A stretch of 64,000 nt of DNA from Escherichia coli (GTDB taxonomy: Bacteria; Pseudomonadota; Gammaproteobacteria; Enterobacterales; Enterobacteriaceae), in the NCBI RefSeq assembly GCF_003334815.1, contig NZ_QOWO01000010.1; one strand, 5' to 3'. The stretch's first letter is position 1. Every line of letters starts with the position of its first letter. This document shows positions 15,807 to 38,485 of this stretch, piece by piece. The translations under genes were made by a program, and so were the position numbers. A model generated the notes under the pieces. It was not told the origin of the DNA, ran no database searches, and worked only from the letters and a program-made list of their open reading frames with translations.

Positions 15807-18602
<2,796 letters not shown>

Positions 18603-36147: not shown

Positions 36148-37257
36148 TCACGGGTTAGCGGGGAAAATAGCCCCCAGTACCGTCTCCTGGCTTGCGCCAG
36201 TGACGGAAGGCAGATTTCCTGGTAATCCCGCCAGCGTCCGCCAGGCAAGCCAGGCGAAAGCCAATGCTTCCATGTCATCGCCACTAATGCCAACGGCATC
36301 GGTGGTGGTGACTTCTGTGCCTGGCAGTAATGCCGCCAGACGCGCCATGAGTAGCGGATTACGACTACCTCCACCACATACCATCAATCGTTCGCAGCCA
36401 CCGCTCAACAAAACTTGTTCAGAAATGGTCACGGCGGTGAGTTCTGCCAGTGTCGCCTGCACATCTCGGGGATCAACACCCGGAAAATGGCGCAAATGGC
36501 GCTCCAGCCAACCATAGTTAAAGTATTCGCGTCCGGTGCTTTTCGGTGCAGGTTGCGAGAAATACGGGTCGCTGAGCATATTTTGCAGCAGTGGGAGAAT
36601 AACTTTACCCGCCCGTGCCCACTCGGCATCTTTATCGTAAGGTTTACCGGCCTGACGCCAGATCCAGGCATCCATCAGCATGTTACCAGGACCGGTATCG
36701 TAGCCCCCAACCGGCTGCCCAGGAATGAGCAGTGACAGATTGGCGATGCCGCCAATATTGAGCACCATTCGTCGCTCGGTTGGGTGAGCCAGCAGCGCAT
36801 GATGGAACGCAGGTACCAGCGGTGCGCCTTGTCCTCCCAAGGCAATATCGCGACGGCGAAAATCACCGACAACCGTAATTCCGGTGCGTGCCACAATTTG
36901 ATTGTTATCGCCAATCTGTAAAGTGTGTGGTGCCACGCCCGTCGGTTCATGCCAGACGGTTTGACCGTGACAACCGATCGCAACTATATCTCTTGCCTGC
37001 AGATTTTGTTCCTTAAGCAAGGCATTGACCGCATCAGCAAAAAGTCGCCCGAGTTGAGTATCAAGCTGTCCAAACTGCGAAAGTGTAAGCTGCTGGCCCT
37101 GGCAAATATCCAGTACAGCCTGTTTCAGAGATACCGGGATCGGCCAACTCAAACTTGCCAGCTGTGCGACCCGGTGTTCATCAATTGTCGCCAACACAAC
37201 ATCAACACCATCAAGGCTGGTGCCTGACATAACGCCAATAAAGCGGCCCGATTTCAT
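36148..37257 (-). CDS. anmK: Anhydro-N-acetylmuramic acid kinase
   Basis: 369 aa [22 protein letters not shown], AnmK family. Confidence 0.93.
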
Positions 37258-37390
37258 AGTTCATCCTTTTTCAATCTGACGTTTGCGCACCACTCAAACA
37301 TAAACTTTTCGTGAATACCATGCGGAATGACCGATTTTTACCGTTGGTAGTAAAACATTATCTTCAAATCAATAATCATCATGAATGTTT

Positions 37391-37407
37391 TGTTTATAAT
37401 TGGTTGA
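37391..37407 (+). promoter_or_regulatory. Candidate PhoP box upstream of slyB
   Basis: TGTTTA-TAATT-GGTTGA direct repeat with 5-bp spacer, about 125 bp upstream of slyB ATG. Confidence 0.4.
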
Positions 37408-37530
37408 TCCTACTTTCATTATGATTTGCTCATATTTGGTAGAACATGTAACCATGGATTCACATATGCCATATACTTTGACCATGAGGGATGCTTGCGT
37501 GGCGTTTCATGGTGAACAGGAGATTTTTCA

Positions 37531-37998
37531 ATGATTAAACGCGTATTGGTTGTTTCAATGGTAGGTCTGTCTCTTGTCGGTTGTGTTAATAACGACACCC
37601 TGTCAGGGGATGTTTATACCGCTTCTGAAGCGAAACAAGTACAGAATGTCAGCTATGGCACCATCGTTAACGTACGTCCGGTACAGATTCAGGGCGGTGA
37701 TGATTCCAACGTTATCGGTGCAATTGGCGGTGCTGTTCTTGGTGGTTTCCTGGGGAATACTGTTGGTGGCGGAACCGGGCGTTCTCTGGCTACTGCAGCA
37801 GGCGCTGTTGCAGGTGGCGTAGCTGGTCAGGGCGTACAGAGTGCAATGAACAAAACGCAGGGTGTCGAGCTGGAAATTCGTAAAGACGATGGTAATACCA
37901 TCATGGTGGTACAGAAACAAGGCAACACTCGTTTCTCTCCGGGTCAACGTGTCGTACTGGCCAGCAATGGCAGTCAGGTGACCGTTTCTCCGCGCTAA
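37531..37998 (+). CDS. slyB: Outer-membrane lipoprotein SlyB (glycine-zipper)
   Basis: 155 aa with lipobox (LVGC) and Gly-rich GxxxG repeats. Confidence 0.93.
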   Translation: MIKRVLVVSMVGLSLVGCVNNDTLSGDVYTASEAKQVQNVSYGTIVNVRPVQIQGGDDSNVIGAIGGAVLGGFLGNTVGGGTGRSLATAAGAVAGGVAGQGVQSAMNKTQGVELEIRKDDGNTIMVVQKQGNTRFSPGQRVVLASNGSQVTVSPR

Positions 37999-38006
37999 AT
38001 AAGTTT

Positions 38007-38034
38007 GCGTGTGGTCAGGTTACTGACCACACGC
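38007..38034. terminator. Hairpin between convergent slyB and slyA
   Basis: GCGTGTGGTCAG-GTTA-CTGACCACACGC. Confidence 0.65.
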
Positions 38035-38044
38035 CCCCTTCATT

Positions 38045-38485
38045 TCACCCTTTGGCCTGTAACTCAATGATATTATGCTCAAGTTTTGCGATGAGCGTAA
38101 TCAGTTGCTCCAGTTCCTCTGCGGAGATGCCATGTAATATTTCCGCGCGGGTTTTGTTAATAACAGCTTCCATTTCGCTGATCAGCGGCTCTGCCTTTTC
38201 CGTCAGTTTAATACGTTTAGCCCGACGATCGCTGGCACAAGTTTGACGCGAAATTAACCCTTTTTCTTCCAGTTGGTCCAGAGTACGGACCAGTGATGGC
38301 TGCTCGATGCCAATCGCTTTTGCCAGTTGAATTTGCGACTGGTCTGGAGGTAACTGATGGATATTGTGTAACGTAACCCAATGGGTTTGTGTTAACTCCA
38401 GCGGTTTCAGGCGATGGTCTATCAGAGCACGCCATATGCGCACCAACCGTGCCAGATCAGAACCTAGTGGCGATTCCAATTTCAT
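38045..38485 (-). CDS. slyA: MarR-family transcriptional regulator SlyA
   Basis: Winged-helix MarR ORF; ATG at 38485 gives 146 aa, but the 144-aa form I recall would start at the TTG two codons downstream (38479). Confidence 0.9.

Follow-up and report, generated by a model that had tools for sequence, protein, structure and literature searches.

The direct repeat between anmK and slyB in Escherichia coli is almost certainly the PhoP box of the PhoP-dependent slyB promoter

The genes anmK and slyB of Escherichia coli are transcribed away from each other, and 273 bp with a G+C content of 36% lie between them. In the stretch of DNA analysed here (64,000 nucleotides, hereafter the window) this intergenic region carries the sequence TGTTTATAATTGGTTGA on the plus strand (37391-37407), which reads as TGTTTA / TAATT / GGTTGA. 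Is this short direct repeat a binding site of PhoP, does it serve slyB, or does it belong to another regulator, to the divergent gene or to nothing at all? An earlier note, made from the letters alone, had proposed a PhoP box in AT-rich DNA upstream of slyB that fits the (T/G)GTTTA-N5-(T/G)GTTTA pattern reasonably well. The repeat that it spelled out agrees letter for letter with the window, the surrounding DNA is AT-rich as described and the identity of slyB follows from the RefSeq annotation. As set out below, there is very little doubt that the PhoP-dependent slyB promoter of E. coli has its PhoP box at 37391-37407. The box and the genes around it are the following.

37391-37396 and 37402-37407, plus strand: PhoP box, a direct repeat of TGTTTA and GGTTGA with the 5-nt spacer TAATT (from sequence, matrix rank, conservation and the published site).
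37531-37998, plus strand: slyB coding sequence, a 155-aa outer-membrane lipoprotein, controlled by the box (open reading frame and RefSeq annotation of the identical region).
37257, minus strand: start codon of anmK, peptidoglycan recycling (open reading frame list, identity from RefSeq).
38045-38485, minus strand: slyA (open reading frame list and RefSeq annotation of an identical copy).

The window is chromosomal DNA. According to the RefSeq annotation of an identical copy, the gene order is tyrS, pdxH, mliC and anmK (minus strand), slyB (plus strand), slyA (minus strand) and ydhIJK. The box lies 124 nt upstream of the slyB start codon and 134 nt from the start codon of anmK on the opposite strand. 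All of the 5426 complete E. coli genomes that were searched have the anmK-slyB intergenic region, with an identity of at least 95%; a single one of the 5429 matches to 37258-37530 was on a plasmid-typed record, and a few genomes had two copies. At the other end of slyB, between the convergent slyB and slyA genes, there is a 12-bp G+C-rich hairpin (38007-38034), which the scan scored as a minus-strand terminator, for slyA, and which may also end the transcription of slyB.

Compared with the consensus (T/G)GTTTA-N5-(T/G)GTTTA the repeat has a single mismatch, its downstream half-site having G as the fifth base. Counting consensus matches is suggestive but gives modest support by itself. The relaxed pattern KGTTKA-N5-KGTTKA occurs once in the window, at the slyB site, against an expectation of 0.16, and the strict consensus with up to one mismatch occurs three times including the slyB site, against 0.88 expected, with at least three such matches in 7 of 100 shuffles. 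Weight matrices were therefore built from the DNase I-footprinted Salmonella PhoP boxes that Zwir et al. (2012; PMC3335776) give in their Table 1, leaving slyB out, in three versions: all 37 boxes, the 24 activation boxes and the 16 direct activation boxes. With each of the three, the 19-mer at 37390-37408 ranked first among the 127,964 positions on both strands, scoring 19.3-19.6 bits, with the runner-up at 14.0-16.7 bits and the median of the training set at 14.0-17.2 bits. The site thus exceeds the median of the footprinted boxes in matrices to which it had not contributed. When the 36% G+C intergenic region was shuffled, this score was reached anywhere in only 2 of 5000 shuffles, which together with the top rank means that AT-richness is not the source of the match. 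The matrix scan, which the earlier note had named as a check, therefore shows its wording to have been too modest: the repeat is the best PhoP-matrix match of the whole window.

Several further candidates for PhoP sites emerged from the same scan and were rejected. The second-best match within the intergenic region is the same box shifted by one half-site. A match of 12-14 bits at 37379-37397 led to a check for a third half-site, CATGAA (37380-37385), located one helical turn upstream, but its columns hold only 0.04-0.32 bits across species. The E. coli slyB promoter has been said in one paper to carry box-like sequences in both orientations; the best minus-strand match in the intergenic region reaches 5.6 bits and falls in a poorly conserved, gap-rich stretch, so that a second, reverse-oriented box was not accepted. 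Elsewhere in the window, the second-best match, which scores 15.9-16.7 bits with the two larger matrices, is at 16873-16891. It falls into another intergenic region between divergent genes, where the palindrome GATAAAACGTTTTA(C/T)C occurs twice, at 16866-16881 and 16945-16960. The match overlaps the first copy and, sitting among these palindromes, is probably the operator of a different regulator. This may be the malI-malX region with its MalI operators.

For a comparison between species, one genome was taken per species, giving 80 slyB loci from genera including Escherichia, Salmonella, Citrobacter, Enterobacter, Kluyvera, Kosakonia, Lelliottia, Atlantibacter, Trabulsiella, Cedecea and Mangrovibacter, and from the Erwiniaceae Mixta, Pantoea and Rosenbergiella, and the 80 distinct upstream sequences were aligned with MAFFT. 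The best matrix match within 300 nt upstream of slyB is at a distance of 117-129 nt from the ATG in 78 of these loci, with a TAnnnT hexamer 11-12 nt past the box. In one of the two exceptions (L023) the match is the same box shifted by one half-site. The two half-site cores, G37392-A37396 and G37403-A37407, carry 1.5-2.0 bits per column with the exception of 37406 (0.86 bits), whereas the spacer columns hold 0.16-0.78 bits and the bases immediately upstream of 37389 less than 0.35. The stretch from the box to the -10 hexamer is free of insertions and deletions in 79 of the 80 sequences, with many gaps upstream of 37381, and T37420, A37421 and T37425 of the hexamer are retained in 79-80 of them. 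Since as many as 53 distinct 17-mers are found among the 80 sequences, this conservation reflects selection and not a lack of divergence; the half-site cores and their spacing are under strong purifying selection across enteric bacteria.

At 37406, position 5 of the downstream half-site, 61 of the 80 sequences have A, 10 have G, 5 have C and 4 have T, which makes the consensus T the rarest base, and the downstream half-site reads GTTAA in most slyB orthologues. The departure from the PhoP consensus at this half-site is thus itself conserved.

The box upstream of slyB is not universal, as the remaining exception shows. Enterobacteriaceae bacterium LSJC7 (L067, 1300-1500) is the sole locus among the 80 with no recognisable PhoP box, its best matrix match scoring 7.0 bits and lying at a different distance, which suggests that PhoP control was lost or rewired in this lineage.

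Every E. coli genome contained the 66 bp that surround the box, and the box was unchanged in the sampled variants. About 1300 of the 5426 genomes differ somewhere in the 66-bp stretch; a common polymorphism, present in all three variant strains sampled, replaces G with A at 37387, 4 nt before the box. In E. albertii the second hexamer is GGTTCA. Two records labelled E. coli stand apart. In strain JJ2434 (L083, NZ_CP013835.1, 1785427-1785726) the similarity ends about 9 nt past the -10 hexamer, near window position 37434, and the DNA downstream is annotated as a partial WbuC-family pseudogene, slyB being absent there. It looks as if a rearrangement or deletion took slyB and left the PhoP-dependent promoter behind. 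In SCPM-O-B-8794 (L004, 1344-1410) SlyB is 99% identical, and the allele of the promoter, TTGTTTATACTTGGTTAAC, is that of Escherichia sp. E1V33 and E. whittamii, not E. coli; the record may come from a cryptic Escherichia clade.

Downstream of the box, the following promoter elements can be delineated.

37420-37425, plus strand: TATGAT, -10 hexamer of the PhoP-dependent slyB promoter (from sequence; 5/6 match to the -10 consensus).
37431-37433, plus strand: predicted PhoP-dependent transcription start (from the geometry mapped with S1 in Salmonella).
37472-37477, plus strand: TATACT (TATAAT in the consensus of the species), a second -10-like hexamer that is part of the conserved block 37465-37478.

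The -10 hexamer begins at 37420, leaving 12 nt after the end of the box at 37407, and the hexamer located 17 nt upstream of it, TAATTG (37397-37402), agrees with TTGACA at one of six positions. A scan for sigma-70 promoters returned no complete -35/-10 pair on the plus strand here, which is not evidence against a promoter, because one that depends on an activator would have no -35 element to find. Architecture I of Zwir et al. (2012) is defined by one directly oriented box that lies 11-12 nt from the -10, here 12 nt, over a poor -35; it is the arrangement described for Salmonella slyB, mgtA and phoP and predicted to be of class II (PMC3335776). For Salmonella slyB the same study gives the box TCGTTTAAGATTGGTTAAT, the -10 hexamer TATGAT with +1 at a distance of 6 nt, and a leader of 100 nt, with support from S1 mapping and a DNase I footprint. 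As no gaps interrupt the alignment between the box and the -10, this geometry can be transferred to E. coli, where the PhoP-dependent start would lie near 37432, about 6-7 nt past the -10, with a leader of about 99 nt.

The leader is conserved in its own right. The block TATGCCATATACTT (37465-37478, also 37439-37453) is as conserved across the 80 species as the PhoP box, with 1.2-2.0 bits in each of the columns 37466-37478, and 37465-37478 is retained in LSJC7, the locus that has no recognisable PhoP box. Two slyB start sites, one of them PhoP-independent, have been reported in Salmonella and E. coli, and the block with its TATACT is probably the second, PhoP-independent slyB promoter; alternatively, it may be a binding site for an sRNA or a protein. 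Further conserved blocks are GGATGC (37489-37494) and TGGTGAACAGGAGATT (37510-37525), the latter containing the Shine-Dalgarno sequence GGAG. A search of 37200-38100 for structured RNA in the slyB leader gave no Rfam match at E-values up to 1.

The site itself is already in the literature. Among the known PhoP binding sites in supplementary file 17 of Harari et al. (2010; PMC2908699) is the entry 'slyB: TTGTTTAT---TGGTTGAT E. coli', which is the exact site of the window. The Salmonella enterica box is its positional orthologue, aligned with it column for column: it has the same direct orientation, the same 12 nt to TATGAT and a leader of about 100 nt, and it precedes the same gene (PMC3335776). 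The two 19-mers, TTGTTTATAATTGGTTGAT in E. coli and TCGTTTAAGATTGGTTAAT in Salmonella, show six differences, four in the spacer or flanks and two in the hexamers (T/C as the first base of the upstream one and G/A as the fifth base of the downstream one), and Harari et al. (2010; PMC2908699) assigned them to separate PhoP 'submotifs'. The mgtA and phoP boxes of E. coli and Salmonella share with slyB the direct hexamer repeat, the 5-nt spacer, the 12 nt to the -10 and the overlap with the missing -35. Unlike this prototype, slyB has the non-consensus downstream half-site GGTTGA and a second, PhoP-independent start site.

Evidence for PhoP acting at these sequences comes from several enteric bacteria. 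In Shigella flexneri the 19-mer ttGTTTAtaattGGTTgAt is identical to that of E. coli, the slyB promoter fragment was shifted by phosphorylated PhoP (PhoP-P) in EMSA, and slyB was expressed at 0.2-0.4 of the wild-type level in a phoPQ deletion; footprints in that study cover yoaE, mgtA and shf, the slyB result being a gel shift (Lin et al., 2018; PMC5775216). The slyB box of Yersinia has been footprinted, SlyB was shown to regulate PhoP activity negatively, and among ten enteric species examined phoPQ and slyB were the only direct PhoP targets common to all (Perez et al., 2009; PMC2650801). Direct regulation of slyB by PhoP in E. coli is credited to Minagawa et al. (2003, as cited in PMC2650801), and the footprint and start-site details for E. 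coli slyB are known here only through citing papers. The E. coli slyB promoter also serves as a PhoP-responsive reporter, the activity of which rises with induced PhoP (Cell Reports, 2026). PhoP dependence of slyB has thus been reported in E. coli, Shigella, Salmonella and Yersinia, and binding of PhoP-P to the E. coli box is supported by the Shigella EMSA on an identical box and by the listing of Harari et al. The accessible literature yielded no mutational test of the E. coli slyB box, and no evidence contradicting the PhoP-box explanation was found. On matrix rank, the footprinted Salmonella orthologue and the published listing, the reading proposed in the earlier note stands.

It might be asked whether the same PhoP box controls the divergent anmK as well, a role that would be added to the activation of slyB and not replace it. 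The anmK-slyB pair is divergent in 79 of the 80 loci, with an intergenic region of 210-300 nt, and in the Salmonella promoter architectures III-V PhoP boxes occur in both orientations and up to about 60 nt from the -10 (PMC3335776). However, conservation is poor on the anmK side of the box (37348-37380), where insertions and deletions abound, and therefore no fixed geometry between box and promoter has been kept for anmK; the sigma-70 scan identified no promoter on the minus strand, and anmK is absent from the PhoP targets named in the literature that we found on PhoP regulation. We regard this additional role as improbable.

The tandem-repeat geometry is common to the OmpR/PhoB family, and the repeat could on that ground be mainly a target of another member, for instance PmrA/BasR or RstA, instead of PhoP. 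The half-site of PmrA is YTTAAK, and the downstream half-site GTTAA(G/T) of most slyB orthologues resembles it. The upstream half-site GTTTA, though, is invariant and is the PhoP core, and with the matrices used, all of them PhoP matrices, the slyB site scores above the training median. Moreover, it is PhoP that leaves footprints at the Salmonella and Yersinia orthologues and PhoP-P that shifts the identical Shigella promoter, and the loss of slyB induction in a phoP mutant is already in the cited literature, which makes a different main regulator very improbable. The weakest explanation, that AT-rich intergenic DNA happened to produce the match and that the repeat regulates nothing, has the low G+C content and the modest consensus counts in its favour, but against the top matrix score, the published binding data for orthologous and identical sequences and, above all, half-site cores, spacing and -10 that are near invariant across 80 species while adjacent bases drift, a pattern which effectively refutes it, its probability is practically nil.

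Taken as the PhoP box of slyB, the repeat would work as follows. PhoQ, sensing low Mg2+, antimicrobial peptides or acid pH, would bring about the phosphorylation of PhoP, and a PhoP-P dimer would bind head to tail, as is the property of the family (Zwir et al., 2012; PMC3335776), to TGTTTA and GGTTGA, one helical turn apart. That PhoP binds here and that slyB depends on PhoP and Mg2+ is drawn from the literature, while the motif, its strength, its distance to the -10 and its conservation are observed in the present data. At about -41 to -25, the box would take the place of the missing -35 element, and the bound PhoP would recruit RNA polymerase to TATGAT 12 nt downstream, in the class II manner of architecture I. 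Class II activation, for which RNA polymerase does not need its alpha C-terminal domain, has been demonstrated for mgtA and is predicted for slyB, so the corresponding contact at slyB is suggested by analogy. Transcription from about 37432 would then produce the slyB mRNA with its leader of about 99 nt.

Could the conserved departure at the downstream half-site itself have been selected? Such a half-site might set the PhoP-P threshold and the timing of the negative feedback exerted by SlyB, or it might make room for sigma region 4 at a class II promoter, in a box that might also influence anmK; we consider this proposal speculative and rather unlikely.

The slyB PhoP box is an already published and well-characterised site, and its regulation is of the ordinary textbook kind, with no new biology. 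As a real transcription factor site that was located from the letters alone, it is useful as a positive control for genome scans. SlyB dampens the activity of PhoP and protects outer-membrane proteins under envelope stress. Given this role, and since slyB and phoPQ are targets conserved in all the enteric bacteria examined, the box belongs among the anchor points of the PhoPQ regulon.
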